Source of the DNA: Minisyncoccota bacterium
Lineage (GTDB): Bacteria; Patescibacteriota; Minisyncoccia; Phycocordibacterales; UBA9973
DNA: 64,000 bases
Direction: 5' to 3'
Assembly: GCA_028718635.1 (NCBI GenBank)
Contig: JAQULK010000001.1
Span: 607,834-671,833, forward strand
Part shown: in pieces, positions 4,155 through 64,000 of the stretch
How positions within the stretch are numbered: position 1 is the stretch's first letter
Layout: every line of letters begins with the position of its first letter
Made by a program: the position numbers and the translations under genes
The notes under the pieces: model-generated
What the model was told of the DNA's origin: nothing
Seen by the model: only the letters and a program-made list of their open reading frames with translations
Database searches by the model: none

Positions 4155-4416
4155 ATAAATTATTGTTTTTGTTTATGTTTAGGGTTGGAGCAAATTATCT
4201 TCAAATGCCTGGCTCTTTTAACCATTTTACAATTGGCACAAATTTTTTTTACTGCTGATTTTATTTTCATAAAAATTTCGAAAATTCAAATAATAAACAA
4301 GAAAAACAAGGAGAATACCCTTATTTTTCAATACTATAACTTTTTAAAACCTACAATTAATATAATACACTATTCTTTAAAAAAACACAACCTGTCTGTC
4401 GGCAGGCAGGCTCCTT

Positions 4417-4662
4417 TTACAATCTTTTAATTATTCTACCTTTTCCGCCATAAGGATCCAGCACCATCTCGACGGAATCTCCAATCAAAACTTTAATTCT
4501 GTGCATCCGCATTTTTCCTCCCAAATATGCTAAAATTTCTTTCTCCTCATCATTTACTCTTACTCTAAATAAAGTAGAGGGCAAAGCCTCAGTGACGATT
4601 CCTCGCGCTGTTTGTAATTTTTCCTGCCTGCCGGCAGGCAGGTCTTTTCGGAAGTCACTCAT
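4417..4662 (-). CDS. infA: Translation initiation factor IF-1, with an N-terminal extension that carries an in-frame palindromic insertion
   Basis: GIVTEALPSTLFRVRVNDEEKEILAYLGGKMRMHRIKVLIGDSVEMVLDPYGGKGRII is the IF-1 S1 fold. The LPAGRQ segment is encoded by the palindrome at 4623-4642. Confidence 0.85.
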   Translation of the reverse strand: MSDFRKDLPAGRQEKLQTARGIVTEALPSTLFRVRVNDEEKEILAYLGGKMRMHRIKVLIGDSVEMVLDPYGGKGRIIKRL

Positions 4663-8567: not shown

Positions 8568-8591
8568 TTCGTAAGCACAATCAATCGCAGA

Positions 8592-8630
8592 ACAGGGGTC
8601 AACGGTTTCCGTTGACCCCTGTATTTAGTT
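8592..8630 (+). terminator. Rho-independent terminator (perfect 14-bp stem)
   Basis: acaggggtcaacgg ttt ccgttgacccctgt followed by atttagtt. Confidence 0.6.
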
Positions 8631-8644
8631 AAATCCAGTAAAAC

Positions 8645-10462
8645 TTAAAATAAAGTGGCTTTGATACGTCTAACACCTTGCGCAACTGCTTCTTCTTTTT
8701 GAATTTTAAATTTGCCCAATTCACCCGTATTGGAAACGTGCGGACCTCCACAGAATTCTCTGCTGAAATATCCTGTTTTTTCGTCTCCGATGGAGTAAAC
8801 TTTTACCATTTCTCCATATTTTTCATTAAAAGAATGTGTAGCGATTTTTTCTGCATCTGCTTTAGGCATTTCCACAAAACCAACCGGCAACTTTTCCGCA
8901 ATTTTATCATTTACAATTTCTTCCACTTTCTTCTTTTCTTCTTCGGTCATTTTTTGCGAATGAGTAAAATCAAAACGCAATCGCTCGCCGGTAATATTGC
9001 TTCCTTTTTGCATTACATGATTGCCGAGTACTTGCTTCAAAGCAGCATTCAGTAAATGTGTAGCAGTATGCAATTTTTTAGCTTCTTCCCCGCCGTCTGC
9101 CAGCCCGCCTTTAAACATCCCAGCAGAAGCAGAACGGGATTTTTCCTGATGATCCTTCAAGGCTTTATTTATTTCATCTTCGTCTACTTTGAATCCTAAG
9201 TCTTTGGCGGTGTTGACCAACAGCTCGATGGGATTTCCGTGTCTTTCAAAAAGAGTAAAGATAAATAATCCGGAAGCCGTATTTTTGTCTTTTAATATCG
9301 GAATATCTCCTGCTTTTTTTATGTTGCCTAATTTTGCAGCTTCCAGGTCAATACGGTATCTTTCAATTCCGTCAAAAGGCTTTTTAAATAATTTTTCTTC
9401 CTCCCTGATAACTGAAATAATATGATCAAATTTATTTTTTATTTCAGGATAAACTTTGTCATAAATTTCAGATATTAGAGAATTAAGTTCAATCCAGAAA
9501 TTATCTGAAAGTTTGATAATTGAGGCTTTAGAAAAAACTCTCCGAAGAAGACGGCGCAAAATATACCCGCGGCCAGTGTTAAAAGGCGTGACCTCGTCTA
9601 TGATCATAAATACTGCTGTACGAAAATGATCAGCAATAATTCGAGCAGAACGCAAATCATAATTTGCGCTTTTTTCTTTTATTAAATCCATCAACGGCTT
9701 GAACAAATCCGTCTCAAAAATATCATCTTTCCCTTGCACTGCCATTACTACTCGCTCGAGGCCCGCTCCGGTATCTACATTGCTTTGTTTGAGTTTCCCA
9801 ATTACTTTCCCATCAAACTTTTCGTATTCCATGAAAACATCGTTCCAGATTTCAATAACTTTCTGCTCCCCGTCAGCTTTCATGTATTCTTCTTTACTTA
9901 AATCTCCCAATCCTTCTTGCGTGATATCATAAAACATTTCAGTGTCAGGTCCACAGGGGCCATTGTCCCCCACGCTCCACCAATTCGATTTTGCGCTCAT
10001 ATAATAAATGCGATTTTCAGGGATATATTTTTTCCAAATATTAAAAGCTTCCGTGTCTTTGGGTGCGTTTTCATCACCTTCAAATACAGTTACATAAAGA
10101 CGTTTTGGGTCCAACCCTAAACCTTCCTCTTTGGAAGTTAAAAATTCATAGCTCCATTTTATAGCTTCTTCTTTAAAATAATCTCCAAGAGACCAATTGC
10201 CCATCATTTCAAAAAAAGTGTCATGAGTTTTATCCCCCACTTCGTCTATGTCTTGAGTGCGCACACACTTCTGAATGTTTACTAATCTGCTACCCATCGG
10301 ATGCTCCTCTCCTAGAAGATATGGCACAAGAGGTTGCATACCTGCAGTATTAAATAAAACAGAAGGATCATTTTCGGGTACTAGAGAAGCAGAAGGAATT
10401 ATTTTATGTCCTCGACTTTCAAAAAATTTTAGAAACCTTAATCTAATTTCGTCTGATTGCAT
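8645..10462 (-). CDS. alaS: Alanyl-tRNA synthetase, short form (catalytic plus editing domains; no C-Ala domain)
   Basis: N-terminus FESRGH..IPSASLVP.NDPSVLFNTAGMQP ... QKCVRTQDIDEVGDKTHDTFFEMMGNWSLGDYFK. C-terminus HTATHLLNAAL...CGGPHV editing-site motifs. Confidence 0.8.
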   Translation of the reverse strand: MQSDEIRLRFLKFFESRGHKIIPSASLVPENDPSVLFNTAGMQPLVPYLLGEEHPMGSRLVNIQKCVRTQDIDEVGDKTHDTFFEMMGNWSLGDYFKEEAIKWSYEFLTSKEEGLGLDPKRLYVTVFEGDENAPKDTEAFNIWKKYIPENRIYYMSAKSNWWSVGDNGPCGPDTEMFYDITQEGLGDLSKEEYMKADGEQKVIEIWNDVFMEYEKFDGKVIGKLKQSNVDTGAGLERVVMAVQGKDDIFETDLFKPLMDLIKEKSANYDLRSARIIADHFRTAVFMIIDEVTPFNTGRGYILRRLLRRVFSKASIIKLSDNFWIELNSLISEIYDKVYPEIKNKFDHIISVIREEEKLFKKPFDGIERYRIDLEAAKLGNIKKAGDIPILKDKNTASGLFIFTLFERHGNPIELLVNTAKDLGFKVDEDEINKALKDHQEKSRSASAGMFKGGLADGGEEAKKLHTATHLLNAALKQVLGNHVMQKGSNITGERLRFDFTHSQKMTEEEKKKVEEIVNDKIAEKLPVGFVEMPKADAEKIATHSFNEKYGEMVKVYSIGDEKTGYFSREFCGGPHVSNTGELGKFKIQKEEAVAQGVRRIKATLF

Positions 10463-10577
10463 CCCGTTAGAAGCAGGTTGCGGTCACCATACCGCAATTA
10501 TACTTAATTATGCTATTAAATTTTGTATTTCTTTTAAACATTAAATATATTTAACTGCGACCGCGGCTTCTAACGGG
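10463..10577. mobile_element. Start-codon-associated palindromic MITE-like element, copy 1, abutting the alaS ATG
   Basis: Terminal inverted repeats CCCGTTAGAAGCAGGTTGCGGTCA / TGCGACCGCGGCTTCTAACGGG. They are flanked by direct repeats ATGCAAT (10456-10462 and 10578-10584, minus sense). Confidence 0.6.
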
Positions 10578-10590
10578 ATTGCATACAACT

Positions 10591-11076
10591 TTATTTCACC
10601 GGTTGATCTATTTCTTCAACAATTTTTCTAATAGGTTTTTCAAGAATATTTATTAAAACTAGTATTAAAAGTACTAAGACAGTAACAAGTATGGCTAGAC
10701 TATAAAGTCCGAAACCAGCCGCCATACCGATACCTGCAGTAACCCAAAGCCCACCAGCGGTAGTAAGGCCTCTAAGCTGTGAACCATAAAGCATTATAGA
10801 ACCAGCACCCAAAAAACCGATACCAACGACAATTTGTGATGGAATCATTACTGGGTTCAAGCCTGGAAGGTTTATATATTTTTGCACCAACGCTTCTGAA
10901 ACCAATACAAAAACCGCTGAACCCAAAGAGACAAGAGCATGTGTTTTCATGCCAGCATCCTTGTGAACAAAGAATCTTTCTGCACCCACTAAAAGCCCTA
11001 AACCTACCGCTACTACTAATTTCAAAATAACATCTCCGTTTTGTATAAAAAATTGTTCCATCGGATAATTATACAA
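10591..11076 (-). CDS. MgtC/SapB family membrane protein
   Basis: LKLVVAVGLGLLVGAERFFVHKDAGMKTHALVSLGSAVFVLVSE is the MgtC signature. Confidence 0.7.
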   Translation of the reverse strand: MYNYPMEQFFIQNGDVILKLVVAVGLGLLVGAERFFVHKDAGMKTHALVSLGSAVFVLVSEALVQKYINLPGLNPVMIPSQIVVGIGFLGAGSIMLYGSQLRGLTTAGGLWVTAGIGMAAGFGLYSLAILVTVLVLLILVLINILEKPIRKIVEEIDQPVK

Positions 11077-12292
11077 CTACTCCACCACCCAAGCAAACAT
11101 TACCATCATAAATGACACAAGATTGACCAGACGCAACTAAAACAGGCTTCTCAAAAATCACTTGTGCAGAAGCCTTACTTCCGCAAATTATTTTGCAAGA
11201 TAAAAATTCCCCATGATAACGAATTTGCGCAGTATAGGTTTTATTTTGTTCTGGAATCTTAGAAATCCAATTGATACTACTCAAAACAAGAGAAAAACTA
11301 TTTGAAAAAGAGGCTACGGAGCGCGACGGCGCGAGTCTTGAGGAATTTTTCAGCAGAAAAATATCCGGACTCTTTTTTAGATAGTTTTTGTCTTGTGATA
11401 CATATAAAATATTTTTCTTTATATCTTTGTCCACCACATAATAGGCTCCATCTGTCGGTGTCTTTTTTGTGATAGTAAAACCATGCCTCTCTCCTAAGGT
11501 ATAAAAAACTTCACCGTCGTGAAAGCCGATCTCTTTTCCATTTTCATTCCCCGCTTCCTGCGGGGCAAGCAACACTTTCCCCTTTTTTTCTTTTATATAA
11601 TGTTTTAAGAATTCTTTTAAATCCACTGCTCCCAGAAAACAAATGCCTTGACTATCTTTTTTTTCTGCAATAGAAAGCTTGAATTTTTTAGCAAGTTTTC
11701 TAACTTCAGTTTTTTTGAGATCTCCAATGGGAAATAAAATCTTCTTTAACTGCTCTTGCCTGAGTGTCCACAAAAAATAACTTTGATCTTTTGCAGGATC
11801 ATTACCTTTCGCAAGCTGAAAAGATGTTCTTTCTTCGGCATTCGCAACCAAAGCTCGGTCAGCCATGTTCAAGATAGAGTGCGAGCCGTGAGAAAGAAGC
11901 ATCTTTTCAGCTTTTGCGTAATGACCAGTAGCCACAAAATCTGCCCCCATTGAAAGAGCCTTTTTAAGGAAAGCTCCAAATTTTACTTCTTTATTACACA
12001 TCACATCCGGATTCGGTGTCCGTCCGAGCTTATATTCTCGAATCATATAATCAGCCACTTCTTTTTTATAAACATCTTCAAAATCAAAAGTAAGAAAAGG
12101 AATATCCAAAGCTGCTGCCACACGCATTGCATCCATACGTTCTTGCTCTTCATTGCAAGCCAAAAAATCCGGATGCCATGTTTTAATAAATACTCCCACA
12201 ACTTCAAAGCCTTGCTTTTTTAGCAAAGCTGCCGAAACAGCGCTATCTACGCCACCCGAAAGTCCCACAAAAACTATTTTTTTCTTTTTCAT
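11069..12292 (-). CDS. mnmA: tRNA 2-thiouridine synthase MnmA, with a repeat-derived in-frame insertion in its C-terminal domain
   Basis: SGGVDSAVSAALL PP-loop motif with the MnmA layout. The segment SSRLAPSRSVAS is encoded by a copy of the 75-bp repeat core at 11300-11350. Confidence 0.8.
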   Translation of the reverse strand: MKKKKIVFVGLSGGVDSAVSAALLKKQGFEVVGVFIKTWHPDFLACNEEQERMDAMRVAAALDIPFLTFDFEDVYKKEVADYMIREYKLGRTPNPDVMCNKEVKFGAFLKKALSMGADFVATGHYAKAEKMLLSHGSHSILNMADRALVANAEERTSFQLAKGNDPAKDQSYFLWTLRQEQLKKILFPIGDLKKTEVRKLAKKFKLSIAEKKDSQGICFLGAVDLKEFLKHYIKEKKGKVLLAPQEAGNENGKEIGFHDGEVFYTLGERHGFTITKKTPTDGAYYVVDKDIKKNILYVSQDKNYLKKSPDIFLLKNSSRLAPSRSVASFSNSFSLVLSSINWISKIPEQNKTYTAQIRYHGEFLSCKIICGSKASAQVIFEKPVLVASGQSCVIYDGNVCLGGGVVV

Positions 12293-12410
12293 GTTTTATT
12301 CGTAAACTCAAATATAATATTTTTGCCGGTACGGATTTTTTGAAGCTTAAAAAATCCTGAAATTCTCGCGCCGTCGCGCTCGAAACCCCTTAAAAACATT
12401 ATATTTGAGT

Positions 12411-12938
12411 TTACGATTCCATCAGCTTTTTGTAAAGCTCAAAGGTCGCACGGGCATCAGAGAGAGCAGAGTGTGGACGCTCGTTTTTAATACCAAAATG
12501 CAAGCACAATTCACGCAAAGAAAAATGCTCAAAATTTTTATTATTATGCAACTTCGCCCAAGCGATAGAGATCGTATCTAATTTATGATAATGCATGGTA
12601 TTTATGGTCTCGATTTTATTAAAGACATATTCTAAAAATCCTGCATCAAAGGCAACATTGTGTCCAACCATAATGCAGTCTTTAACTTTTTTAGAAAAAA
12701 TTTTTATCGCTTCTTTTAGATCAAGCGCATCCTTCCAATCCTCTTGATTAAAATGATTCACTTTAATAGCAGCTGGGTCAGCGTTTTTAATGTATTCCGG
12801 TTTAATTTTTAATTCAAATTCCTCAATCACATCAAGAGTTGATGACGTAAACACACAACCAATCTCAATAATCTCATGCTTCAGTAAACTTAAGCCAGTG
12901 GTTTCTATATCAATAAAAGCAAAATTGTGTTTTCTCAT
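12411..12938 (-). CDS. DnaQ-like 3'-5' exonuclease (DEDDh; epsilon-like)
   Basis: Exo I motif FIDIETTGL, Exo II motif GHNVAFD, Exo III motif HSALSDA. Confidence 0.7.
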   Translation of the reverse strand: MRKHNFAFIDIETTGLSLLKHEIIEIGCVFTSSTLDVIEEFELKIKPEYIKNADPAAIKVNHFNQEDWKDALDLKEAIKIFSKKVKDCIMVGHNVAFDAGFLEYVFNKIETINTMHYHKLDTISIAWAKLHNNKNFEHFSLRELCLHFGIKNERPHSALSDARATFELYKKLMES

Positions 12939-29579: not shown

Positions 29580-31229
29580 TTAAAATATGTTAAAATATTT
29601 TAAGATAAATAATTGCCCAAGTGGCGTAATTGGTAGCCGCGCAAGACTTAAAATTTTGTGACCGCAAGGTCGTGTGGGTTCGATTCCCACCTTGGGCACC
29701 AGAATAGAACTAGACGGTTTTTCAGAAACCAAAATGCGGGACGCGCGAAGCGCGTCCCAAGGATTCCCGCCGAATTCCCCCAACGAATTCAGAATTTTTG
29801 GCGCGCTTGCGCGCACTAATTTTTCGCCAAGAAGCAGGTTCGAGCCAAAGATTTCTTTGGCTTTGACCTTTTTTGCAAAAAGGTCATCATCAGAAGCAAT
29901 TTTGTCCAAGGATTGAGCGTCTTTTATCCATTCTTTCATCGGTTCGAGCCAATCATTCTGCTTGTGTGAAAGAGAGGTTATTTCTTCTTGGAGAGACTTC
30001 TTTTCAGATAACAACTTTGCTTTTTGATTTCGATAATCTTGTTCATCAATTACTTGGTCTAAATATCCTGTAAGAAGTCGCTCTAACTTTTGTGAAATGA
30101 CCGATAGTCTTGTTTCGTTCTCTTTCACACAAGCAGTCAAAGACGGGGCGGAATTGTTAAAATCTTTTTCTGCCATTTTTAACAATTCTTCCGCCCAGTC
30201 TTTGGGCAAAGAAACTTTTTGTATTTCGGATGATAACTGGCGATCCAATTCTTTTTCTCGAACGGCAGACTCGGAGCATTTTATAGTTTTAGATTTTTTT
30301 GTACAACGATAATATGTGTATTCATGGACATTACCATTTTTCTGCCGTTTGAATTTGTGTTCGCCAGTTATCATCATCCCACAAGAAGCACAGGAAATGA
30401 GTCCGCAAAATGGTTGAGGTTCGTTTTGTGGTTTTCGTTCGGGTTGTCCACGGAGTTTCAACATTTCCTGTGCTTCATCAAAAAGTTTCATTGAAATAAT
30501 TGGCTCATGAATACCTTCATGAATTTCTCCGCCATATTTAAACAAACCGATATAGAACGGATTAGAGAGGATAAAAGACGCTTTGGTTTTGGAGATTCTC
30601 TTTCCGGTTCGAGTGGTAACGCCGGACTTTGCCAAAAATGATGACACATCTTCCAGTCGCATATTTCCTTTTGTGTATTTCTCAAAAGCCAAGCGCACGA
30701 TGCGAGATTTTTTCTTTTCCACCACGATTGTTTTTGTTCGTGAATCGTTGAGATAACCCACTGGCGCTTGGCTTGGGAATATACCCATTCTGACTTTTTG
30801 GCGAAGTCCGCGTTTCGTATTTTCGGAAAGAGAATCGACATAGTATTTGCTTTGTACAAAGGCCATAGAGAGCGTAAATTTGCCCTGTGGCGTACTTTCA
30901 AACCAAAACTGTGGGAACTTAAGGCTCACAAGCAATCCGATGTCTAAAAAGTAGACAATCTTTCCACCGTCCACCGAATTGCGGGCCAAACGATCTGGAT
31001 GCCAAGAGAGAATACAATCTGCATCGCCCTTTTCAATACGCTTCATCATTTCATTAAAAATTGGACGACCTGGAATTTTAGCAGATTGTTTTTCGATAAA
31101 CTCTTGGGCGATGTTCAGATTTTCTCTCTTGGCGAACTCCCGCAATTCGGTGAGTTGTGCGTCAATTGATAAAACCTGCTTGTCTTCGACATCGGTTGAC
31201 TTGCGAGCATACAAAAAGAATTTTTGCAT
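29580..31229 (-). CDS. Large serine recombinase (integrase/invertase). The ORF reads through tRNA-Leu(TAA) on the opposite strand before reaching a stop.
   Basis: Resolvase catalytic N-terminus (YARKSTDVEDKQVLSIDAQ), recombinase domain, zinc ribbon (CGLISCASCG...YYRC), coiled-coil C-terminus. The last ~45 codons lie inside the 149-bp inverted repeat. Confidence 0.8.
   Translation of the reverse strand: MQKFFLYARKSTDVEDKQVLSIDAQLTELREFAKRENLNIAQEFIEKQSAKIPGRPIFNEMMKRIEKGDADCILSWHPDRLARNSVDGGKIVYFLDIGLLVSLKFPQFWFESTPQGKFTLSMAFVQSKYYVDSLSENTKRGLRQKVRMGIFPSQAPVGYLNDSRTKTIVVEKKKSRIVRLAFEKYTKGNMRLEDVSSFLAKSGVTTRTGKRISKTKASFILSNPFYIGLFKYGGEIHEGIHEPIISMKLFDEAQEMLKLRGQPERKPQNEPQPFCGLISCASCGMMITGEHKFKRQKNGNVHEYTYYRCTKKSKTIKCSESAVREKELDRQLSSEIQKVSLPKDWAEELLKMAEKDFNNSAPSLTACVKENETRLSVISQKLERLLTGYLDQVIDEQDYRNQKAKLLSEKKSLQEEITSLSHKQNDWLEPMKEWIKDAQSLDKIASDDDLFAKKVKAKEIFGSNLLLGEKLVRASAPKILNSLGEFGGNPWDALRASRILVSEKPSSSILVPKVGIEPTRPCGHKILSLARLPITPLGQLFILKYFNIF
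29625..29701 (+). tRNA. tRNA-Leu (TAA), CCA encoded. Its last nucleotides form the end of the 149-bp inverted repeat.
   Basis: Acceptor GCCCAAG/CTTGGGC, anticodon loop CTTAAAA, long variable arm, T-loop TTCGATT, ACCA tail. Confidence 0.8.
29695..29843. repeat. IR1-left: 149-bp inverted repeat overlapping the recombinase 3' end and the tRNA-Leu(TAA) 3' end
   Basis: Reverse-complement match to 31426-31574 with one mismatch. Confidence 0.85.
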
Positions 31230-31306: not shown

Positions 31307-31425
31307 CATTTCTGCTAACTTTACTTAATAATAATTGTGCGCAAAGTCATTATACTACTTTTAGAAAAAAGACAAAAATTCTTTTTGTATTTAAAGCAAA
31401 TACTATGTCAAAATTGCTTCTGATT

Positions 31426-31574
31426 TCGAACCTGCTTCTTGGCGAAAAATTAGTGCGCGCAAGCGCGCCAAAAATTCTGAATTCGTTGGGGGAATTCGGC
31501 GGGAATCCTTGGGACGCGCTTCGCGCGTCCCGCATTTTGGCTTCTGAAAAACCGTCTAGTTCTATTCTGGTGCC
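31426..31574. repeat. IR1-right: inverted copy of the 149-bp repeat, including a copy of the tRNA-Leu 3'-terminal GGCACC
   Basis: Reverse complement of 29695-29843. It encodes the same recombinase C-terminal peptide on the plus strand. Confidence 0.85.
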
Positions 31575-31986
31575 TCTATTATACCAAGTTAGGACCTATT
31601 TTCAAAACAAAGTGAGGTAATCGCACGCGCGGAGCGCGTGGTGATGTGAAAGTTTTTCGTACGCTCGACGCAAAGCCCCGCCACTGCCTCGCTTCACTCG
31701 GCAACCCCAAAAAGAAAAAATGTTCCTTGCTCTTTTGATTTTCGCGGGGGGATTTTTTTCTAAAATGGAAAGGACATTTTTCTTTTTGGTGTTCTGCCTT
31801 CCAAGTATTCAGGCAGTGTGGCGGGGCTTCAATTCGGACTTCGGCAAAGCGGAAAATCTATTTTTCTGGGGGAAAGGATTTTTCCGCTTTGCCTCAGACT
31901 GTTTTTATTTTTGGCCCGCGCGCAGAAAGGGGTCTGGGGAATGAATGCGCGCGGGCTTTTGAGGCGGGGCTATTTTTTCCAATCTT
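31571..31986. repeat. IR2-left: ~415-bp GC-rich, highly structured inverted repeat; candidate structured RNA or recombination arm
   Basis: Reverse-complement identical to 36244-36657. It contains several perfect hairpins, including GGCAAAGCGGAAAATC...GATTTTCCGCTTTGCC, GCCCGCGCGC...GCGCGCGGGC and CACGCGC GGA GCGCGTG. Confidence 0.85.
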
Positions 31987-32149
31987 TAATAATCAAATGT
32001 CTTGCTTTGAGTTCAACAACCAATTTTTGTTTTTCTTTCCACTTTAGCTTGCGAACATATTCAATCGGCAAGGTTATAGAAAAGCTGTTGCCTCCGGCAA
32101 CTTTGGAAAGTTTTCTGATGTTATGATTTTGTGATTTTTGTGTTGGCAT
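31970..32149 (-). CDS. AbrB/MazE (SpoVT/AbrB swapped-hairpin) family small DNA-binding protein, 59 aa. It is not in the ORF track.
   Basis: Minus-strand translation MPTQKSQNHNIRKLSKVAGGNSFSITLPIEYVRKLKWKEKQKLVVELKARHLIIKDWKK matches the AbrB/MazE pattern K.G.S..VTIP.E....L....D.V.L...G..I.L. Confidence 0.45.
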   Translation of the reverse strand: MPTQKSQNHNIRKLSKVAGGNSFSITLPIEYVRKLKWKEKQKLVVELKARHLIIKDWKK

Positions 32150-32176
32150 AGTGGTTCATGAATACTTTCATGAGAA

Positions 32177-35100
32177 TCATTTATTTCCCATTAACTCATT
32201 TATTTTAGCTAAAGTGGTTTTGCCGACATAGCCAGTTCCTTTGATAAAACCCCATGGCACAAGAACATCCTTTACATATTTTTCTTGGAATTTGATTACT
32301 GCTTTTTTAGTGAGCAGACCGAAAAAATTGGTTTCTTTGCCAGGAGAACCAGCGCCTGAATCGGCCACTTTTGTATCTGGATCGGAATTGAGGAAAATTT
32401 GCAAGCGTTTAATATCGGCGTTTGTTTGTCTGTATTGCAAGTATTTAGTAAATGGATTGGTAAGCGACAAATTATTTGTCTGTTGCAAATTTTCCGTCGG
32501 GGTACTACTGGATTTTAGAATAATTGTACTTGAGGCAATACCTGACGATTGGCCATAGTATGTGAAGAATTTAACATAAATTTTGTATGTTCCGGCGGGA
32601 CAAGTTGGATTTTTTATCACATCAAATTTTGAGCAAAGATCAATTTGTTTGGTTGCTGAATAATTTTCTTGGCTGGCGTCATTGAAATCACCGGTCAAGG
32701 AAATTGCCATTTTTTTAACATCTGAACCAGCGTTGAAGTTGAGATTAACAATTCTGCTTGTAGTTGTACCTGCTCCAGAATTTACTAAAACTTTGAATCC
32801 GCCTGTCGGCGTTATTGGTAAATTACTCCAACCTGCTGGCATACCACCGCCTCCACACCCGCTCGTTGATTTTGTAATTGAAATTGAACTAGTTTCTGTT
32901 CCGTCACCGTTTCTATATATTACGGAGTAATCGTATGAATGACCGCAAGATAATCCGGTATCTGTCCAGGAGTTAGTTTGTATCCAGCCAGAATTGGCAC
33001 CGGAACGAGAAAAATAATATCCTGATGTTCCGCTTGTATCATTTGGAAAACTATCAACGCTCAAAGTTACACTGTTTGAATTTGATGAGGCGGAAAGATT
33101 AGTTGGAATCGGAGCTAAAGTATATCTAGACAATGAATCAGAAAAAGCGGATTCGTTTAAATTGTTATCCCGTGCTTTGACTTGATAAGTATATTGAGTA
33201 TTAGCGGAAAGTCCGGAGTCAATTAAAGAAGTTGATGATTGCCAGTCAGAAGAAGATGATCCGCCAGAGTGTCCTGTTGTTTCGTTGAACCAATATGGAG
33301 CTGAGTGTAATCCCGGGTCTGCATCAGTAGCCGTCTGAGATGTAATAGTTAATTGAGTTGTTGAATCAATAGATATAGACGAAATGCCTACATTAGTTGG
33401 CGCGCCTGTATTTTGTTCCAAAGCAAAAATGTGTGTGGAATATCCCCCAGTATAGGTAAATGTTAAATTACCCGAAGAATCTGAAAGGCATAACCCGTTG
33501 GTGCAGGTATCACCGGTAATTGCAGTTGTGGAGGCTACCCCGTCTAATTTAAATTGGTAATACTTACTCGATGCTAAATTACCAATTGTATAAATGGTAT
33601 TTGTTGCGATAGACGAGGTGGCTGTCCATTGCTTGTTCTTTGTTCCTGATGTTAGCCAAGAATCAAGAGTAACATTTATATACTCACTGTAATCAGATGA
33701 AGGCCAGCCGCCAACAGGAGAAACTGAAAAATTAGCAGATTGTGTGCTTGATGTGGCTGTAGTGTATCTATATTTTCCGTCAGAATAAATTCTGATTGAA
33801 CCAGTCGGGTCAACTAAATCTGTGCCAATAGTATATGGTGGTTGATATTCGTATGCACCAATATCGGGAGTGCCGTAAATATGGTTGCCAGAAATATCAG
33901 TGGTCAAGGAAAGGTTGGTACCGGTATCTATGCCAGGCGACAAATTTTGAAGAGAATAAATATTGCTCGAAGAATCTAGAAACAAAGGATTTGCATTAAT
34001 GCTATTAGCATCTTTTCCTGTAATAGCATTATCACTAATTAACGCCGTTTTCCACAAGCTAAAATCAGTATAATTTGTACCATTCAACGCAGATAAATGC
34101 GCACCATTAGGAGCATAATACAAGTTATTATCAATACCGACAGAAGTATAAGGTCCTGAAATTGAAACATTTTGTAAATTATTTCCGAGAGAAGCCTCCG
34201 TATAGACAAGATTATTTTTAAAGATTACTTTTTTTCCACTTGTTTGTGTATCCATGCCATGTCCATATCCTCCAGGGGCAGATGGATTATGAATAACCGT
34301 ATTGTTATAAAATGTGGATGTATTTATCGTAGATTGACCGGTAAAGTTAAGACCGTTAACATGGGCGTTTCTAACTAGGTTATAGTAATAATTATTACCT
34401 CCATTACCAGAAGTTACCCCATCGCTTATCTGACCTTCCAATAAATTGTTTCTGTAGATATTATTGGTAGCACTTGATCCAGCAATAAATATTCCGGAAC
34501 CACTCATGGTGGGGTATTCTAATAAATTCCAAGTATATGATATATTGTTACCAAAAATAGAATTGGAGTTCGCATTATTTAAAAAAACACCATATTGAAA
34601 ACTATTTGTGGTACTTGTACCGATAATATTTGTTGAGACATTGGAATTACTACTACCATTCAAATATATCCCAATAAGAGCGGCACTTGTTTTATCAGAA
34701 TTTGTGTTTGTAATAGTATTTCCCGTTATAGTGTGCGAGTTGGTGGTCACGGAGATTCCCTGACTTACTGTTCCGTTTGTCACTATTGAATTGCTGGTTA
34801 TATTAAGCGTTGTCGCTGTATCGACAGTGATACCATAATTGAAACCATTGCTCGCAGTGCTACCAATTATGTTTTGATCTATTGTACTATTGCTGGAAAC
34901 TCCAGTAATAAAAATGCCCACTAATCCAGCATTTGTTTTTGTGACATTAGAGTTGGTCATTGTATTACCACGAACAACTGTTGATGCTCCAGTGTTCACA
35001 TAAACTCCTTTTGCCCCAACCGCACTCGTAACAATTGTATTGTTTAATATCTGAGTGCCAGTCACACCACCAGTGGTGATATAAATGCCCGTGCCTAAAT

Positions 35101-35590
35101 CGTTAGTAATATCGCATCTTTGTACGATTCCGCCACTCATTGAACCCATGAAAACTAAAGCACCATTGGTATCACCTCCTCTTAAATCTAAATCCTGGAA
35201 CGTTACATTACTTTTACCGTTTGATAAAACAGCGTGGATATTCGTATCAGTTATAGCATTCAAAATTGGTTTATTTCCTGTACCATATGCTCCTGTAACT
35301 ATTGGAGTTGTTACGCCACCCTCATCGGCTGTTATATAAACATTTGAGAATGAATCTCCTCGATTGAATAATATTTCATCACCACTTACCAATACAGTAG
35401 AGGCAGACAATCCAGTCGCAGAACCGTCCCAAGGATGATGAGCCCAGGTCGTCGATATTGAAGTTCCATTGTTTGAATCTGACCCAGTAGCACTTATATA
35501 ATACGTTGTCGCACTTGCCGACTTAACAAATAAAAAGCAAGTTCCGAATATAACGAAAACAAAAAAGATTTTATAATATTTATTCAACAT
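32177..35590 (-). CDS. Giant secreted surface protein: right-handed parallel beta-helix repeats, Ig/FN3-like middle region, C-terminal peptidoglycan-binding domain
   Basis: Signal peptide. Dozens of NxTI/GxxxN beta-helix rungs with a DIGAYEY cap. C-terminal IKRLQIFLNSDPD...GLLTKKAVIKFQEKY resembles a PG_binding_1 domain. Confidence 0.7.
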   Translation of the reverse strand: MLNKYYKIFFVFVIFGTCFLFVKSASATTYYISATGSDSNNGTSISTTWAHHPWDGSATGLSASTVLVSGDEILFNRGDSFSNVYITADEGGVTTPIVTGAYGTGNKPILNAITDTNIHAVLSNGKSNVTFQDLDLRGGDTNGALVFMGSMSGGIVQRCDITNDLGTGIYITTGGVTGTQILNNTIVTSAVGAKGVYVNTGASTVVRGNTMTNSNVTKTNAGLVGIFITGVSSNSTIDQNIIGSTASNGFNYGITVDTATTLNITSNSIVTNGTVSQGISVTTNSHTITGNTITNTNSDKTSAALIGIYLNGSSNSNVSTNIIGTSTTNSFQYGVFLNNANSNSIFGNNISYTWNLLEYPTMSGSGIFIAGSSATNNIYRNNLLEGQISDGVTSGNGGNNYYYNLVRNAHVNGLNFTGQSTINTSTFYNNTVIHNPSAPGGYGHGMDTQTSGKKVIFKNNLVYTEASLGNNLQNVSISGPYTSVGIDNNLYYAPNGAHLSALNGTNYTDFSLWKTALISDNAITGKDANSINANPLFLDSSSNIYSLQNLSPGIDTGTNLSLTTDISGNHIYGTPDIGAYEYQPPYTIGTDLVDPTGSIRIYSDGKYRYTTATSSTQSANFSVSPVGGWPSSDYSEYINVTLDSWLTSGTKNKQWTATSSIATNTIYTIGNLASSKYYQFKLDGVASTTAITGDTCTNGLCLSDSSGNLTFTYTGGYSTHIFALEQNTGAPTNVGISSISIDSTTQLTITSQTATDADPGLHSAPYWFNETTGHSGGSSSSDWQSSTSLIDSGLSANTQYTYQVKARDNNLNESAFSDSLSRYTLAPIPTNLSASSNSNSVTLSVDSFPNDTSGTSGYYFSRSGANSGWIQTNSWTDTGLSCGHSYDYSVIYRNGDGTETSSISITKSTSGCGGGGMPAGWSNLPITPTGGFKVLVNSGAGTTTSRIVNLNFNAGSDVKKMAISLTGDFNDASQENYSATKQIDLCSKFDVIKNPTCPAGTYKIYVKFFTYYGQSSGIASSTIILKSSSTPTENLQQTNNLSLTNPFTKYLQYRQTNADIKRLQIFLNSDPDTKVADSGAGSPGKETNFFGLLTKKAVIKFQEKYVKDVLVPWGFIKGTGYVGKTTLAKINELMGNK

Positions 35591-35596
35591 AATTTA

Positions 35597-35932
35597 TTAT
35601 TTCTTTTGCAATACCGTCGAAACTTCAAAAATTGAGGTTTTCTTCAGTACAATTTTGTAAACACTTTCCAAAAAATCGCCACCAGCGTAACCGACAACAA
35701 ACGCTAATGCCGGAGTAAATTCACCAAGACCAAAAAAGTTTAATCCAAGTTCTTTTGTTGCAACTGCGGTCAAAAGACCAATAATGCCGGAGATAAAAAC
35801 CATAACGAAAAAATACAAAGTTTCAAATTTAGGCGTTTTGTAAGAAAACTGTTTGAAAAATCCAAACAAAGCTCTTACCATTCCTCCGCCGAATCCGGCG
35901 ATCAATATTGAGAAGTAAAATGATTCCCACAT
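35597..35932 (-). CDS. Small three-transmembrane membrane protein. It is the first gene of the surface-protein operon; a holin-like role is possible.
   Basis: Three hydrophobic helices; translationally adjacent to the giant gene. Confidence 0.3.
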   Translation of the reverse strand: MWESFYFSILIAGFGGGMVRALFGFFKQFSYKTPKFETLYFFVMVFISGIIGLLTAVATKELGLNFFGLGEFTPALAFVVGYAGGDFLESVYKIVLKKTSIFEVSTVLQKK

Positions 35933-36042
35933 AGTTTTGATAAGTTAATTGTTAATAATTAAATACAAAAAACACCGCAAAAACGGTGTTATAATTTAAG
36001 TGGAAAAGTTAAACAAACAAAAACACGGAGAGCGCGTGTTAC

Positions 36043-36062
36043 TCTCTCTCTCTCTCTCTCTC
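36043..36062. repeat. (CT)10 dinucleotide repeat in the operon upstream region
   Basis: ctctctctctctctctctct, about 110 bp upstream of the first ATG of the operon. Confidence 0.9.
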
Positions 36063-36243
36063 GATTCGTGCCGAAATTTTGTTCATAATTTTTTTGATAA
36101 TAACGTCTCCAACCATATTTGTATTATAGCAAATTTTGGTGTAAAGTGTAAATACAAAGTCAAGCTGTGAATTTCGTTTTCCCCCACCCAAAAACTAGCG
36201 GAGTAAGCGGAGGATTATCCAATATCATGAATGTATTCATGAG

Positions 36244-36657
36244 GATTGGAAAAAATAGCCCCGCCTCAAAAGCCCGCGCGCATTCATTCCCCAGACCCCT
36301 TTCTGCGCGCGGGCCAAAAATAAAAACAGTCTGAGGCAAAGCGGAAAAATCCTTTCCCCCAGAAAAATAGATTTTCCGCTTTGCCGAAGTCCGAATTGAA
36401 GCCCCGCCACACTGCCTGAATACTTGGAAGGCAGAACACCAAAAAGAAAAATGTCCTTTCCATTTTAGAAAAAAATCCCCCCGCGAAAATCAAAAGAGCA
36501 AGGAACATTTTTTCTTTTTGGGGTTGCCGAGTGAAGCGAGGCAGTGGCGGGGCTTTGCGTCGAGCGTACGAAAAACTTTCACATCACCACGCGCTCCGCG
36601 CGTGCGATTACCTCACTTTGTTTTGAAAATAGGTCCTAACTTGGTATAATAGAGGCA
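36244..36657. repeat. IR2-right: inverted copy of the ~415-bp structured repeat
   Basis: Reverse complement of 31571-31986. Confidence 0.85.
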
Positions 36658-36691
36658 CATTACGTTAGGTAAGACCCAACGTAAAAGTTTT

Positions 36692-36764
36692 GCGCCCTTA
36701 GCTCAGCTGGTAGAGCAGATCCCTCTTAAGGATAAGGTCGTTGGTTCGATCCCAACAGGGCGCA
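36692..36764 (+). tRNA. tRNA-Lys (CTT)
   Basis: Acceptor GCGCCCT/AGGGCGC, D-arm TAGCTCAGCTGGTAGAGC, anticodon loop CTCTTAA, T-loop TTCGATC. Confidence 0.8.
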
Positions 36765-37711: not shown

Positions 37712-37735
37712 AGGAAGCCTTGCTTCCTTTTTTTA
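37712..37735 (+). terminator. Rho-independent terminator (bidirectional)
   Basis: A-run, AGGAAGC CTTG CTTCCT, then a T-run. Confidence 0.6.
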
Positions 37736-38008
37736 TATTTTAGTATGTATTATTTTCTCGATTGCCTTTATTCGCTTCAGGCTTGCTAAAATTTCTTCAG
37801 CTTTTACTCCGCCTTTCTTAAACTTAGTGAAATCAATTAAAGTTTTCCAAGTTCCCTCATCCCCCCACTCATCAACAGGCATAATGTTGAAAATGGGTTT
37901 TGAACGACGAACAACAGTAAAAGACTTGCCCTCTGCAATGGCATTTATATATTTTTCTGCATTTAAGCGCAGATCTTTTAAACCAATAATGCTTGTTTTC
38001 GTAGACAT
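37733..38008 (-). CDS. Phd/YefM-like antitoxin-domain protein; orphan, no adjacent toxin
   Basis: IIGLKDLRLNAEKYINAIAEGKSFTVVRRSKPIFNIMPVDEW resembles the Phd/YefM N-terminal fold. Confidence 0.35.
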   Translation of the reverse strand: MSTKTSIIGLKDLRLNAEKYINAIAEGKSFTVVRRSKPIFNIMPVDEWGDEGTWKTLIDFTKFKKGGVKAEEILASLKRIKAIEKIIHTKI

Positions 38009-38027: not shown

Positions 38028-39045
38028 GATAACCCTGTGTCTGTCTTAGGCACAGACATTTGGCGGTTTAATTAATTGATAATCTTCCAGAAATTCATTT
38101 GGCGTTTTTCCATTTAAACCGCAATGTTCTAGATTGTTGTAATATATATTCCATCTTTTTAATTTCTTTTGCAAATCTTTGAAACTTTTAAATTTGTTTT
38201 GCTCGTAGAATTTCTCTTGGTCTTCCCGATGGCTGCGTTCCACAGTGCCATTTTGAGCTGGCTTACCGGGATCAATCAAGTAATGGATGATATTGTTCTC
38301 ACGGCAAAAAATATCCAAAGGGTGTAGGGTTTTCACCCTAACATCACTTCTTTTGTTGGTTCCTAGGTAGTAATTGGTAAAAACAACCCCATTGTCTGTT
38401 TTAATCGCTTGGATTTTGTATTTAAATATTTGCATCACTTCTTTTAAAAACAGAATCGAATGAAAATTAGTTTGTTCATCGTAAACAGCTAGATGTCTCC
38501 ATCTTGAAGCTGTATCGATGGCTGTATATTGAAAATATCTTTTGTTTGCAATACGTCCAGGAACATATTTCACGTCAATTTCTAGTAGTTCTCCTGGTTG
38601 TCTTTCGGCTTTAATATATTTGTATTTGATTTTCTTTACCCGATATTTTCGCACCAAGTTTTCCTTTTTTAGAATCTTACCGACTGTTCGTTCGTGAATT
38701 TCAATACCTTCCTTCTTTAACTGCCAGTGTATTTTGAGTGCGCACTTTTTTGTTTTCTTTCTAACCTCAACCACTCTTTCTTTCATCCAAATTGGAGTTT
38801 CGTTTTCCTGTGTTTTCGGTTCAGTTGATTTAGGTTCCAGTCCTGCTTCTCCTTTCGCTTTATAGGTTGCTACCCAGCGTTCTAGGCTTCGTTTACTGTA
38901 TGGACAAACCCCAACTGTATCAACTATTTTAACTTTCTTCTTTACAATTGGCAGCACCCACCTCAACCTCTCTTCTTTGATTGTTTTAGCCATAGATATG
39001 CTCATTCCTCCATTTTAGGAGAAACCGCCATATGTGTGTGCACAT
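38028..39045. mobile_element. IS481-family insertion sequence (single DDE transposase, imperfect terminal inverted repeats)
   Basis: Ends GCACAGACATTTGGCGGTTT (left) and AAACCGCCATATGTGTGTGC (right) match about 18 of 20 as inverted repeats around the transposase ORF. Confidence 0.55.
38046..39005 (-). CDS. IS481-family DDE transposase (rve integrase core)
   Basis: N-terminal HTH; catalytic D (ELLEIDVKYV), D (AIKTDNGVVF), E (NGTVERSH) with IS481-like spacing. Confidence 0.75.
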   Translation of the reverse strand: MSISMAKTIKEERLRWVLPIVKKKVKIVDTVGVCPYSKRSLERWVATYKAKGEAGLEPKSTEPKTQENETPIWMKERVVEVRKKTKKCALKIHWQLKKEGIEIHERTVGKILKKENLVRKYRVKKIKYKYIKAERQPGELLEIDVKYVPGRIANKRYFQYTAIDTASRWRHLAVYDEQTNFHSILFLKEVMQIFKYKIQAIKTDNGVVFTNYYLGTNKRSDVRVKTLHPLDIFCRENNIIHYLIDPGKPAQNGTVERSHREDQEKFYEQNKFKSFKDLQKKLKRWNIYYNNLEHCGLNGKTPNEFLEDYQLIKPPNVCA

Positions 39046-40806: not shown

Positions 40807-41793
40807 TTACTTTTTATTTACCCTCAGTAATTCTACAACAAGAGCGACCATCTTGTCTTTGTGCCTTGGATCGCTTTCAGCTATTAAAAGAGTAATTGCA
40901 GTTAACCCTGTAGGATTGATATTGCGCGCTCCTCTTACCCTATTTTTTCTTAAAAACCAGATAAACGCAAAAGCTCCAGATCTTTTGTTGCCATCTATAA
41001 ACGGATGATTCTTCACCATAAAGTAAAGCAAATGCGCGGCTTTTTCCTCAAGTGTCTCGTAAACATCCTTCCCGCCAAAAGCCTGCATGACGTTGCCGAC
41101 AATGCCTTCGATACTTCCCCTTTCTCTTTCCGTGGCAAAAATATCCATGGCTTCAGACTTTTTTATTAATTCATTTTTAAGTTCAGAAATAGCTTTCAAA
41201 AGTTCTACGCCAGCAAGTTTTATCCTCTTTTTCGTCACACCAGCTTTTGTAAGTAAATCTTTATCATATGCATCAAGCTTCGCCCAAGTAATAGAATATT
41301 CTTTTACAAGATCTAAAATAGTTTTTGGGTCAAGAATTACATGTGTTGGCAATAATGCTTGAATATCAGAAACATTTTTCAAAAACTGATCGTAATTTTT
41401 AAGAACTACTTTTTTGTTTATGGTGTAGCCTTTTACAAGATGGTCATGTAAAGTCTTAGTCGCCCACTGACGAAATAATGTAGCTGTTTTGCTGTTAACT
41501 CTGTAGCCAACGGAAATAATCGCATCTAAATTGTAAAGTTGAGTACTATAAATTTTTCCATCGCTAGCAGTTATTCGGAATTTCCGAATAACTGATTTTT
41601 TATTCAATTCCTGATTTTTAAAAATATTTGCTAAGTGTTCGTTTATAGTTGGAACCGTAACTCCAAAAACCTCGGCTATCTGCGCTTGGGTAGCCCAGAT
41701 AGTCTCTCGAGAAAAATCTCCACGCAATTCTATCGCTCCATTTTTGGCTTGATAAATTATAAGTTTATTTTTTATTTGTTGTTTATCTTTCAT
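40807..41793 (-). CDS. RhuM-family N-terminal domain fused to a Fic/Doc (death-on-curing-like) domain
   Basis: N-terminus IIYQAKNGAIELRGDFSRETIWATQAQIAEVFGV...IRKFRITASDGKIYSTQLYNLDAIISVGYRVNS matches RhuM. The C-terminal HPFIDGNKRSGAFAFIWFL is the Fic motif HPFx[DE]GN[GK]R. Confidence 0.65.
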   Translation of the reverse strand: MKDKQQIKNKLIIYQAKNGAIELRGDFSRETIWATQAQIAEVFGVTVPTINEHLANIFKNQELNKKSVIRKFRITASDGKIYSTQLYNLDAIISVGYRVNSKTATLFRQWATKTLHDHLVKGYTINKKVVLKNYDQFLKNVSDIQALLPTHVILDPKTILDLVKEYSITWAKLDAYDKDLLTKAGVTKKRIKLAGVELLKAISELKNELIKKSEAMDIFATERERGSIEGIVGNVMQAFGGKDVYETLEEKAAHLLYFMVKNHPFIDGNKRSGAFAFIWFLRKNRVRGARNINPTGLTAITLLIAESDPRHKDKMVALVVELLRVNKK

Positions 41794-62690: not shown

Positions 62691-63040
62691 GCTGTTGTTT
62701 GTTTTGTTTCGTTCTTATAACTTAAGAGTCTTTCCTCTCTGTCAATATATCTTTTTAAGTCCACAACATATTTAGACTATTGTGTCGTCAATTGAGCGAC
62801 ACAATACCGACTCAATATATCCAACCTCTCCGAGGTCAGTTTTCGTTTTGAGACGAGAAACTCAATTCTATAAAATTTCTTTCATAAAACTGGGACGTTT
62901 TTCAAATTGAATTATTCCACGACCAGCTTCCGCTAGCCGTGCCTTGTTACGACTTAGTCCCTGTCACCGAGCTTACCTTAGGACCCACTTATGCGGATAC
63001 TTCGGGTACTCCCGGCTCCCTTGACTTGACGGGCGAATAC

Positions 63041-63905
63041 TTTCGTTAAACTACGAATTTGTGTTCCCACCGAACGGACGGATTTCCCGTATTCGGCGAG
63101 CTCTAATGCATGTGTTGTTTTAAGGAATACAACTTCTTTAATCCAGATTCTTTTAAATGTATACCATTATCAATCATCGAAAACATTTTGCAAAATATAT
63201 CGAAATCTTTCTTTTTTGAAGGAAATTTCAATATGTGTTTCTTGAAAAATGGAATTATGACTGATTTTAGGTCGTTTCTATTGTAAACTTCATATCTATA
63301 ACAATTTTGATGATTGGGACGCGTATCTTTTTGAAAATACACACTGCCACAACCAAAGAAATTTTTTAATTGATATAAAATCTTTTTATCTTTCTCAACA
63401 AGTTTCAAATAAAATTTTGGTTCTATTTTAACTCTCCGAGAATGAGAAACTTTAGAAGGATTTCGAACGTAAACAGTAAAACTGCCTTCGCCATCCACTA
63501 AACCTATAATGTAATCTGGGTTAATGTTTTGCATAGAGTGAATACCTTCCCTTGACATAAGGTCGAGGTACTATGATTCAGCTGACTTCTGACGCTGCGT
63601 AAGTTTAATTATATCATATCTTTCGAAATGACAACAACATCAGATCTCCACAGGTCACTTAAAATTCTTTTCCAAACATCCCAAACGAGCTTTTCTACGA
63701 GTTTTCCCTACCCTCACCACCCACTAGTAGGTCAACTGACTCTTTTTTATGTCGGGCTGCTCTTTGTTTCCAGATCCTCCACCATTTACCTCGCGGTAAA
63801 AGGCTATCTTTCTACTACGCTTCGATTACGAATCGAAGGAATGGATTTAAACCATTTAGAAAATTAAGCTGCTGCGCGCTTTTATTGTGAGTACAAGACT
63901 TGAGA
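63041..63905 (-). mobile_element. Intron (group I type presumed) inside the 16S rRNA gene, carrying a LAGLIDADG homing-endonuclease ORF
   Basis: The exon sequence CTTGTAC / CGCCCGTC is split by ~860 bp of non-rRNA sequence that contains the endonuclease ORF on the same strand. Confidence 0.65.
63103..63558 (-). CDS. LAGLIDADG homing endonuclease (intron-encoded)
   Basis: IIGLVDGEGSF motif; ~150-aa single-motif LAGLIDADG layout. Confidence 0.75.
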   Translation of the reverse strand: MSREGIHSMQNINPDYIIGLVDGEGSFTVYVRNPSKVSHSRRVKIEPKFYLKLVEKDKKILYQLKNFFGCGSVYFQKDTRPNHQNCYRYEVYNRNDLKSVIIPFFKKHILKFPSKKKDFDIFCKMFSMIDNGIHLKESGLKKLYSLKQHMH

Positions 63906-63952
63906 ACGTATTCACCGCAGTTTAGCTGACCTGCGATTACTAGCAATTCCAG

Positions 63953-63988
<36 letters not shown>

Positions 63989-64000
63989 AGGGCCACTTTT

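Follow-up and report, generated by a model that had tools for sequence, protein, structure and literature searches.

A length-variable GA repeat in the leader of a patescibacterial surface-protein operon: a candidate switch acting through frame-dependent attenuation

In the genome of a Minisyncoccota bacterium (GenBank assembly GCA_028718635.1), a perfect GA dinucleotide repeat is found in the leader of a two-gene operon and probably serves, by analogy with a pilus switch of Streptococcus gallolyticus, as a stochastic on/off switch for the giant surface protein that the second gene encodes. The DNA analysed here, referred to as the window, is a stretch of 64,000 nucleotides (nt) from contig JAQULK010000001.1 (positions 607,834 to 671,833, forward strand). 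That the tract is a genuine hypermutable repeat within a transcribed leader can be held with high confidence. The full mechanism proposed below, in which the slippage-prone (GA)n stretch is part of a leader open reading frame (ORF) ahead of a terminator-like hairpin, T2, and governs attenuation through the reading frame, is given a probability of roughly 55%.

Patescibacteria (candidate phyla radiation, CPR) are mostly uncultivated, and those in culture live as episymbionts attached to host cells. The surface proteins of such episymbionts presumably matter for host attachment. The elements of the locus are listed here in the direction of transcription.

36123..36152, minus strand: predicted promoter, with -35 TTTACA at 36152-36147, an 18-nt spacer and an extended -10 TGcTATAAT at 36131-36123
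36039..36086, minus strand: leader ORF (upstream ORF, uORF), from the ATG at 36086-36084 through 7 codons and the tract to the TAA at 36041-36039; product MNKISARIERERERE, then stop
36042..36062, minus strand: simple-sequence tract, whose codons are the last of the leader ORF and specify (Glu-Arg)3-Glu
36010..36046, minus strand: hairpin T1 with a U-rich run; stem at 36046-36028, its 5' arm being the last GAGAG of the tract, which pairs with CUCUC
35989..35998, minus strand: alternative-frame stops, TAA at 35998-35996 (for tract lengths of 2 mod 3) and TAA at 35991-35989 (1 mod 3)
35961..35990, minus strand: predicted terminator-like hairpin T2, AACACCGuuuuuGCGGUGUU at 35990-35971 followed by a U run
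35597..35932, minus strand: first gene of the operon, encoding a small, weakly holin-like membrane protein of 111 aa
32177..35590, minus strand: second gene of the operon, encoding a secreted protein of 1137 aa whose N-terminus is signal-peptide-like

A polymorphic repeat in the operon leader

The tract at 36042-36062 is a perfectly alternating sequence of 21 nt (CTCTCTCTCTCTCTCTCTCTC), which reads (GA)10G in the sense of the operon and (CT)10C on the plus strand; it can also be written as (CT)10 at 36042-36061 or as (TC)10 at 36043-36062. Tandem Repeats Finder (TRF) reports 10.5 copies with a 100% match. It is the longest simple repeat in the window by a wide margin, with no close second; when the window is shuffled 100 times with its dinucleotides preserved, the expected count is 0.00 even for a CT pattern of 12 nt. 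The tract is not part of either operon ORF. It lies 109 nt upstream of the ATG of the first gene (35932), in the segment between two inverted-repeat (IR) arms of 424 nt that are 99% identical (31570-31993 / 36235-36658). A preliminary description of this DNA had placed a (CT)10 repeat about 110 bp upstream of the first gene of the surface-protein operon, inside an IR-flanked segment, and the measurements agree with it on each of these points.

Does the tract vary between related genomes? Homologous loci were collected through the closest relatives of the 111-aa protein, and through a single DNA-pattern scan for the T2 sequence in each of two collections, one of metagenomes and one of genomes. 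Among related Patescibacteria, 26 contigs (given L numbers here) carry a tract at the same position between conserved flanks, with lengths from 7 to 27 nt: 7 (L027 and L036), 13, 15, 17, 19, 21, 25, and 27 nt. The borders of the tract are invariant across these relatives, with ATC (or TAC) in front and TAAA behind. Wherever the 111-aa protein is at least about 70% identical, the same order of promoter, short ORF, GA tract, T1 region, T2, and gene is found. The lineage of L005, L008, and L009 has the same leader and lacks the 111-aa gene; in L005 and L009, the leader stands directly before the gene for the giant protein. More distant members of the 111-aa family (L028-L035, at about 65% identity) have leaders without a GA tract and no giant-protein partner; the module is thus confined to a subclade.

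The ten contigs of the P0011 group, drawn from different samples, agree in every residue of the encoded 111-aa protein, and nine of them contain a complete tract. The flanks of these nine differ at 0-3 of 1100 nt, an identity of at least 99.7%, and their tracts measure 13, 15, 15, 15, 17, 21, 27, 27, and 27 nt, a difference of up to 7 repeat units. The length heterogeneity between strains that the preliminary description had anticipated is therefore present at the homologous locus. Three contigs (L015, L016, and L026) start within the tract and another (L021) starts 9 nt before it, as would be expected if assemblies break on length heterogeneity within a sample. A tract that mutates much more rapidly than the sequence around it and is conserved in presence and position is, as judged from these alignments, the signature of a slippage-prone repeat of the contingency type.

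It had also been proposed that the tract is part of a promoter spacer, where changes in its length would alter promoter strength. Mapping of -35 and -10 elements does not bear this out. On the operon strand, the scan returned a single strong sigma70-type match (11/12 positions, plus the TG of an extended -10), with a predicted transcription start near 36116; a second match at 11/12 occurs just once in 20 kb of the window. The -10 element ends at 36123, 60 nt upstream of the tract start at 36062, and the tract is therefore transcribed, as (GA)n within the leader, and is not a promoter spacer. The same promoter is found in the same relative place in L013, L018, and L007, and every relative has a conserved extended -10 promoter at a distance of 36-60 nt ahead of the tract. 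No -35/-10 pair that brackets the tract was found in the window or in the relatives, and in the window the sense strand between tract and ATG showed no promoter-like site. The idea that the tract alters the -35/-10 spacing has nothing in its favour beyond the position of the tract upstream of a gene, and lengths of 7-27 nt would push any bracketing elements far beyond a workable spacer; given the conserved promoter 60 nt upstream, it is hardly credible. Of the slipped-strand switch suggested earlier, the slippage-prone length (7-27 nt in homologous leaders) thus stands, while the promoter-spacing route is unsupported; the more likely link between length and expression is the frame of a leader ORF ahead of a terminator.

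The promoter region is structurally variable between strains as well, as indicated by two kinds of rearrangement in the P0011 group. In L019, L023, and L024, the 3' end of an ORF with the appearance of a transposase adjoins the leader promoter. In some strains of the group, the end of this transposase-like ORF takes the place of most of the -35 hexamer, and in other strains the promoter is present as a tandem duplicate (the set concerned is L017, L019, L020, and L024).

The leader ORF, its three frames and the hairpin T2

The whole tract lies inside the leader ORF, downstream of the operon promoter. At all 22 loci for which upstream sequence is available, the ATG of this ORF is located 24 or 27 nt upstream of the tract and reads it in the GAG-AGA frame. 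When 16 distinct leaders were aligned from the ATG to T2, the only insertion or deletion (indel) other than in the tract itself was one of 3 nt, or one codon; no variation was seen in the ATG, in the TAA that follows the tract, or in T2. The sequence of the encoded peptide is poorly conserved.

Neither the operon genes nor the leader ORF are preceded by a Shine-Dalgarno sequence. The 16S rRNA in the window has the 3' end GGAATAATTCAAT in place of GGATCACCTCCTT and contains no CCUCC anti-Shine-Dalgarno motif; since the operon genes themselves do without a Shine-Dalgarno sequence, its absence before the leader ORF is no argument against translation of that ORF. A Shine-Dalgarno-like role of the (GA)n tract is ruled out by the same 16S 3' end. 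A leaderless start at the ATG at 36116, 7 nt after the -10 and in frame, was also considered and rejected, the codon being GTG in L002, AAG in L011, and out of frame in L005.

The place at which the leader ORF ends depends on the length of the tract modulo 3. In class 0, UAA follows the tract directly, 49 nt before the T2 stem; in class 1, UGA or UAA overlaps the first base of the stem (a gap of -1 nt); in class 2, UAA is found 6 nt before the stem. For the window, removal of one GA unit gives a computed peptide of 31 aa that ends at 35991-35989, and addition of one unit gives a peptide of 30 aa that ends at 35998-35996. Of 17 distinct downstream sequences, 15 have the three stops at offsets of 0, 43, and 50 nt from the end of the tract, despite strong divergence of the T1 region. 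The two others are L002, with A in place of the last G of the tract, and L016, from which T2 is missing. Wherever a homolog has T2, its distance from the end of the tract is constant.

Complete tracts are available from 22 loci, of which 13 belong to class 0, five to class 1, and four to class 2, with clusters at 15, 21, and 27 nt. The excess of class 0 (13/21, L036 not being included) has a binomial p of 0.007, a value that is uncorrected for relatedness. A bias towards lengths of 0 mod 3 is suggestive and not proven.

T2 has a predicted energy of -9 to -13 kcal/mol and is followed by 5-7 U in every homolog that has it. Its pairing is kept in L014 and L017 in spite of one-sided changes, and L027 has a hairpin of different sequence in its place. 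Elsewhere in the window, 28 terminator-like sites consisting of a hairpin plus U run were found, as against 13.8 +/- 4.0 in shuffled sequence, and this roughly twofold enrichment makes it plausible that the organism uses such terminators. A scan of viral contigs for the T2 pattern gave no match. No Rfam 15 family matched 35900-36700 at the gathering threshold, the hits being at noise level (E of 0.05 or worse), and at gathering and E-value thresholds no family was assigned to the leader or to the GC-rich element described below.

How could the length of the tract be read out? Thermodynamic RNA folding puts the probability of the T2 stem at a constant 0.94 as the tract is varied between 2 and 15 units. 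Thus, folding alone does not carry the information on tract length and another carrier is needed, for example the reading frame. In the proposed mechanism, the promoter of the operon also drives transcription of the leader ORF, which lies upstream of T2 as an intrinsic terminator, and gain or loss of 2-nt GA units shifts the frame of this ORF. The window's tract of 21 nt belongs to class 0 (0 mod 3), in which the ribosome would leave at the UAA after the tract, T2 would form, and most transcripts would end there, giving a low state. In classes 1 and 2, translation would pass the weak hairpin T1 and end at the T2 stem, either on its first base or 6 nt short of it; the ribosome would then mask the 5' arm of T2 and allow read-through into the operon, giving a high state. 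The window would accordingly carry a short-peptide allele in the low state, from which one GA unit more or less would lead to read-through. Translation of the leader ORF, termination at T2, and the ON/OFF polarity are inferred from the pil1 and pil3 leaders of S. gallolyticus, which are compared with the present locus in the last section.

Hairpin T1 comes immediately after the stop of class 0, ahead of T2, and takes in the end of the tract; the CUCNCC motif and U run of its region are invariant. As a matter of speculation, T1 might be a pause site that synchronises RNA polymerase and ribosome, or a first or fail-safe terminator. Several further structures were considered. An alternative antiterminator hairpin was not detected. 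An H-type pseudoknot formed by GAGAG:CUCUC and ACACG:CGUGU was rejected, because its loop would be 0 nt long, which is unfeasible, and the ensemble probability of ACACG:CGUGU is 0. Likewise, a termination-reinitiation relay through T2, based on an AUGA at the class-1 stop, was discarded; the ATG is ATA in the window, and the frame of the ensuing ORF is not conserved because the length of the U run varies. Just 5' of the tract, the leaders have a potential hairpin of the form UUUYG-NNN-CRAAA with C-G, U-G, and U-A variants; it is broken in L011 and is not predicted by RNAalifold.

Length might also act without translation, either through the (GA)n RNA or through the GA.TC duplex (H-DNA/triplex), and with a graded effect. 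The routes that come into consideration are pausing or termination at T1, mRNA stability, and a protein that binds purine repeats; simple-sequence repeats (SSRs) in 5' untranslated regions are known to tune expression in Moraxella uspA1 and uspA2. Consistent with such a role, the invariant CUCNCC and the U-rich run of T1 are both paired by RNAalifold with the 3' end of the tract, and the probability of pairing between tract and CUCUC shifts somewhat with length (0.14-0.65). However, the probability of the T2 stem stays at 0.94 at all lengths, and a mechanism of this kind would leave unexplained the in-frame ATG, the codon-sized indel, the fixed spacing between tract and T2, the alternative-frame stops at T2, and the clustering at 15, 21, and 27 nt. 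We consider it unlikely.

Could the tract be a neutral hypervariable microsatellite in the 5' leader, which slips and leaves the operon unaffected? All three frame classes occur among the relatives and the frame bias is weak once relatedness is corrected for, as this explanation would have it. Against it, the exact position is kept between invariant flanks although T1 and the promoter have diverged and the proteins are 72-92% identical, and the tract is embedded in an arrangement of ORF and terminator that matches a proven switch. Neutrality is thus quite unlikely as an explanation.

Another alternative is that the leader is a small gene in its own right that ends at T2. Its product would be either a micropeptide carrying a (Glu-Arg)n tail of variable length or a small RNA, and the operon would be served by an unrecognised promoter of its own, after T2. 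The two terminator-like hairpins behind a small ORF are in line with such a gene, and an excess of 0 mod 3 lengths would fit selection for the in-frame peptide. By contrast, the U run of T2 ends only 29 nt before the ATG of the operon gene, with no promoter-like site on the sense strand in the window, L013, L018, or L007; the leader always accompanies the operon, including in L005 and L009; and conservation of the peptide sequence is poor. An independent gene is very unlikely on these grounds.

Several observations also weigh against the proposed attenuation by reading frame. The promoter, the transcription start, translation of the leader ORF, and the function of T2 are all predictions for this organism. 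When the tracts are reduced to 12 distinct lineages, class 0 accounts for 6/12 and the excess is not significant (p=0.18), and in any one sequence the alternative frames would be open by chance with a probability of 0.2-0.4. Hairpin T1 is weak and differs between homologs, with energies from -0.6 to -10.5 kcal/mol among homologs, and L016 has a long tract with no T2-like hairpin. Switching is not expected in the lineages of L027 and L036, which have 3.5 units each. L005, L008, and L009 were recovered from three samples and agree fully in their flanks and in a tract of 21 nt; a majority allele can therefore be stable. Finally, exact look-ups of the 111-aa and 1137-aa proteins of the window found no record and hence no near-identical strain; the polymorphism has therefore been demonstrated at the homologous locus and not in the strain of the window.

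Operon genes and the surrounding cassette

The 111-aa protein weakly resembles holins, with matches to Pfam Phage_holin_3_3 at E=0.007 (below the cut-off) and to a PHROG holin family at E=5.6e-4. Its family has 362 homologs, largely from metagenome bins of Patescibacteria/CPR. The 1137-aa protein is a right-handed beta-helix protein with a weakly PG_binding_1-like C-terminus. It is a mosaic: compared with its counterpart in L009 (the product of 8399-12184), the C-terminal 610 aa are 83% identical and the signal peptide is conserved, whereas identity falls to 32% in the N-terminal half, which holds the beta-helix. Elsewhere among the relatives, the partners of the 111-aa gene are quite different giant proteins (GDSL lipase, DUF2341/LamG). 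These comparisons suggest that cassettes have been exchanged downstream of a constant module of leader and holin-like gene.

A further element is located upstream of the promoter.

36225..36242, no strand assigned: perfect palindrome TCATGAATACATTCATGA, a candidate operator and not part of the repeat switch

Most relatives with available upstream sequence have the palindrome ahead of the promoter, as the window does, namely L002, L004-L006, L008-L010, L012, L013, and L036; it was not found upstream in L007, in L011, or in the group of L014 and L017-L025. The contigs L004 and L013 end exactly at it. An imperfect second copy at 32156-32173 comes just before an ORF of 59 aa (31970-32149, minus strand), which follows the 1137-aa gene and matches Pfam MazE_antitoxin at E=4e-6, with no toxin gene nearby. 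The perfect palindrome is fused to the last 16 nt of this MazE/AbrB-like ORF, and the right IR unit therefore equals the left unit minus the body of the ORF. The same layout of palindrome and ORF occurs in L009 at 12190-12390.

The palindromes bracket the operon cassette, and outside them lies a GC-rich element of about 400 nt, whose two copies make up the 99% inverted repeat at 31570-31993 and 36235-36658. Inverted copies are also found in L009 (8025-8150 / 12381-12506) and L005 (1-97 / 4328-4424), and the element has been conserved ahead of the same operon in L002, L009, L010, and L012. It forms long hairpins in L014 and L025, with compensatory changes; RNAalifold, on 5 sequences only, gives 53 pairs, of which 11 have double-sided changes. 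The outer end of the element holds the promoter of tRNA-Lys and tRNA-Leu(tag).

A large serine recombinase is encoded at 29580-31229 (minus strand), and the 3' end of its gene runs into tRNA-Leu(taa). This 3' end has an inverted copy of 149 nt with 99% identity (29695-29843 / 31426-31574), which abuts the left IR arm, where fragments of a degraded second recombinase copy are also found (31373-31574). Junctions near 29697, 31570, and 36657 have the common core GGCAC, and the middle one is a hybrid of the site upstream of tRNA-Lys and the site at the recombinase end. From their sequences, the junctions look like products of att-site recombination. In L009, a different serine recombinase (23% identity) is located beside the IR-flanked operon.

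Is the real switch then an inversion of the IR-flanked segment by the neighbouring recombinase, with the tract a mere bystander? The 424-nt repeats are 99% identical and a large serine recombinase adjoins them; moreover, L009 and L005 share the flanking IR and another serine recombinase, and their operon points away from the recombinase and not towards it. However, the promoter, leader, terminators, and both genes are all inside the segment and would never be uncoupled from each other, and inversion between identical arms would leave the outer junctions unchanged. The recombinase junctions resemble the att sites of an integrative element at tRNA genes, and neither the conservation nor the polymorphism of the tract would be explained. 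Inversion as the actual switch is thus highly improbable.

The wider surroundings are rich in mobile elements. They include a transposase of the rve family with helix-turn-helix (HTH) domains at 38046-39005 (minus strand), an ORF of 328 aa at 40807-41793 (minus strand) that is Fic/RhuM-like by impression only, and a small ORF at 37733-38008 (minus strand) with the look of a Phd/YefM-type antitoxin, judged by eye only. The 16S rRNA gene in the window (62900-64000, minus strand) is interrupted: its 5' part can be followed as far as GTCTTGTACTCAC (about 63887), and its 3' part begins again near 63035 (CGCCCGTCAAGTC), break points that imply an insertion of roughly 850 nt.

The features around the operon suggest a larger variation cassette; the conclusion on the tract is unchanged by them. 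A broader and tentative extension would be that, across the clade, the GA leader is a heritable stochastic attenuator for giant mosaic surface proteins with a holin-like partner, within a layered cassette that jointly diversifies the surface of the episymbiont. Just as doubtfully, the layers of such a cassette might comprise slippage of the tract, conventional regulation by the palindrome as operator with its MazE/AbrB-like regulator, the GC-rich inverted element, and inversion or exchange by the serine recombinase.

Comparison with known switches

In the literature searched, no paper linking Patescibacteria with phase variation was found. The locus is a concrete, clade-wide candidate for a contingency switch, testable on metagenomic and metatranscriptomic reads that are already available. 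In annotation, assembly breaks are likely to occur at the tract, as are biologically meaningful strain-level 'indel' calls.

In Helicobacter pylori, CT/GA repeats in the 5' coding region of hopZ, oipA, and sabA shift the frame by slipped-strand mispairing. These outer membrane protein switches share with the present locus the dinucleotide unit and the surface protein as target. They differ in that the tract here is not in the coding region of the regulated gene but in a separate leader ORF, 109 nt upstream. In a second class of SSR switches, repeats in promoter spacers alter transcription by their length, as in Haemophilus influenzae hif, with (TA)n, Neisseria porA and opc, and Mycoplasma vlp. 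A simple repeat upstream of a surface-protein gene is common to these and to the operon described here; however, the present tract is found 60 nt downstream of the -10 and not between -35 and -10. The invertible promoters of the fim/hin type are also different, since the promoter, the leader, and both genes here all lie between the IR arms, from 31993 to 36235.

In classical attenuation, as in Escherichia coli trp and pyrBI, the position of the ribosome on a leader ORF decides whether a terminator forms (PMC3894217). The proposed mechanism would likewise depend on the position of the leader ribosome, and a first hairpin could synchronise RNA polymerase and ribosome. In trp and pyrBI, this position reflects the supply of tRNA or nucleotides, whereas here it would be set by a heritable and reversible change of frame; in addition, no alternative antiterminator hairpin was detected at the present locus.

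The closest parallel is provided by the pil1 and pil3 pilus operons of S. gallolyticus, where GCAGA repeats in a leader peptide act together with a premature terminator (Danne et al. 2014, PMC3894217). In-frame short peptides end at a distance of 28-39 nt or more from the terminator (39 nt in pil1) and give low expression, the state of most cells. Out-of-frame peptides stop next to, in, or beyond the hairpin; the ribosome then blocks the terminator and expression is high (PMC3894217). The locus in the window has the same components, namely a promoter, a small ORF that contains the entire repeat, a premature intrinsic terminator, as predicted here, and an operon for a surface structure. In both cases, the repeat unit is not a multiple of 3 and the number of repeats varies between strains. 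The stop of the short peptide is well before the terminator (39 nt in pil1 and 49 nt here), and the other stops are at or in it. The short-peptide allele is the commonest one among the contigs assembled here, as it is among most pil1 isolates.

By contrast, there is no sequence homology between the two systems, as both the repeat and its flanks differ, and the GA leader is thus an analogue and not a homologue of pil1 and pil3. The (GCAGA)13-22 pentanucleotide repeat has its counterpart in a dinucleotide, (GA)3.5-13.5, and a weak hairpin, T1, is present in addition, with the tract itself as its 5' arm. The leader has no Shine-Dalgarno sequence, in an organism without an anti-Shine-Dalgarno. The cargo consists of a holin-like protein and a giant beta-helix protein in place of sortase pili, and it belongs to uncultivated Patescibacteria and is known from sequence alone. 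In the literature found, the combination of leader-peptide repeat and attenuator has been demonstrated only for the pili of S. gallolyticus; if the mechanism proposed here is true, it would extend to a dinucleotide repeat, to a distant phylum, and to translation that does not rely on Shine-Dalgarno-led initiation.

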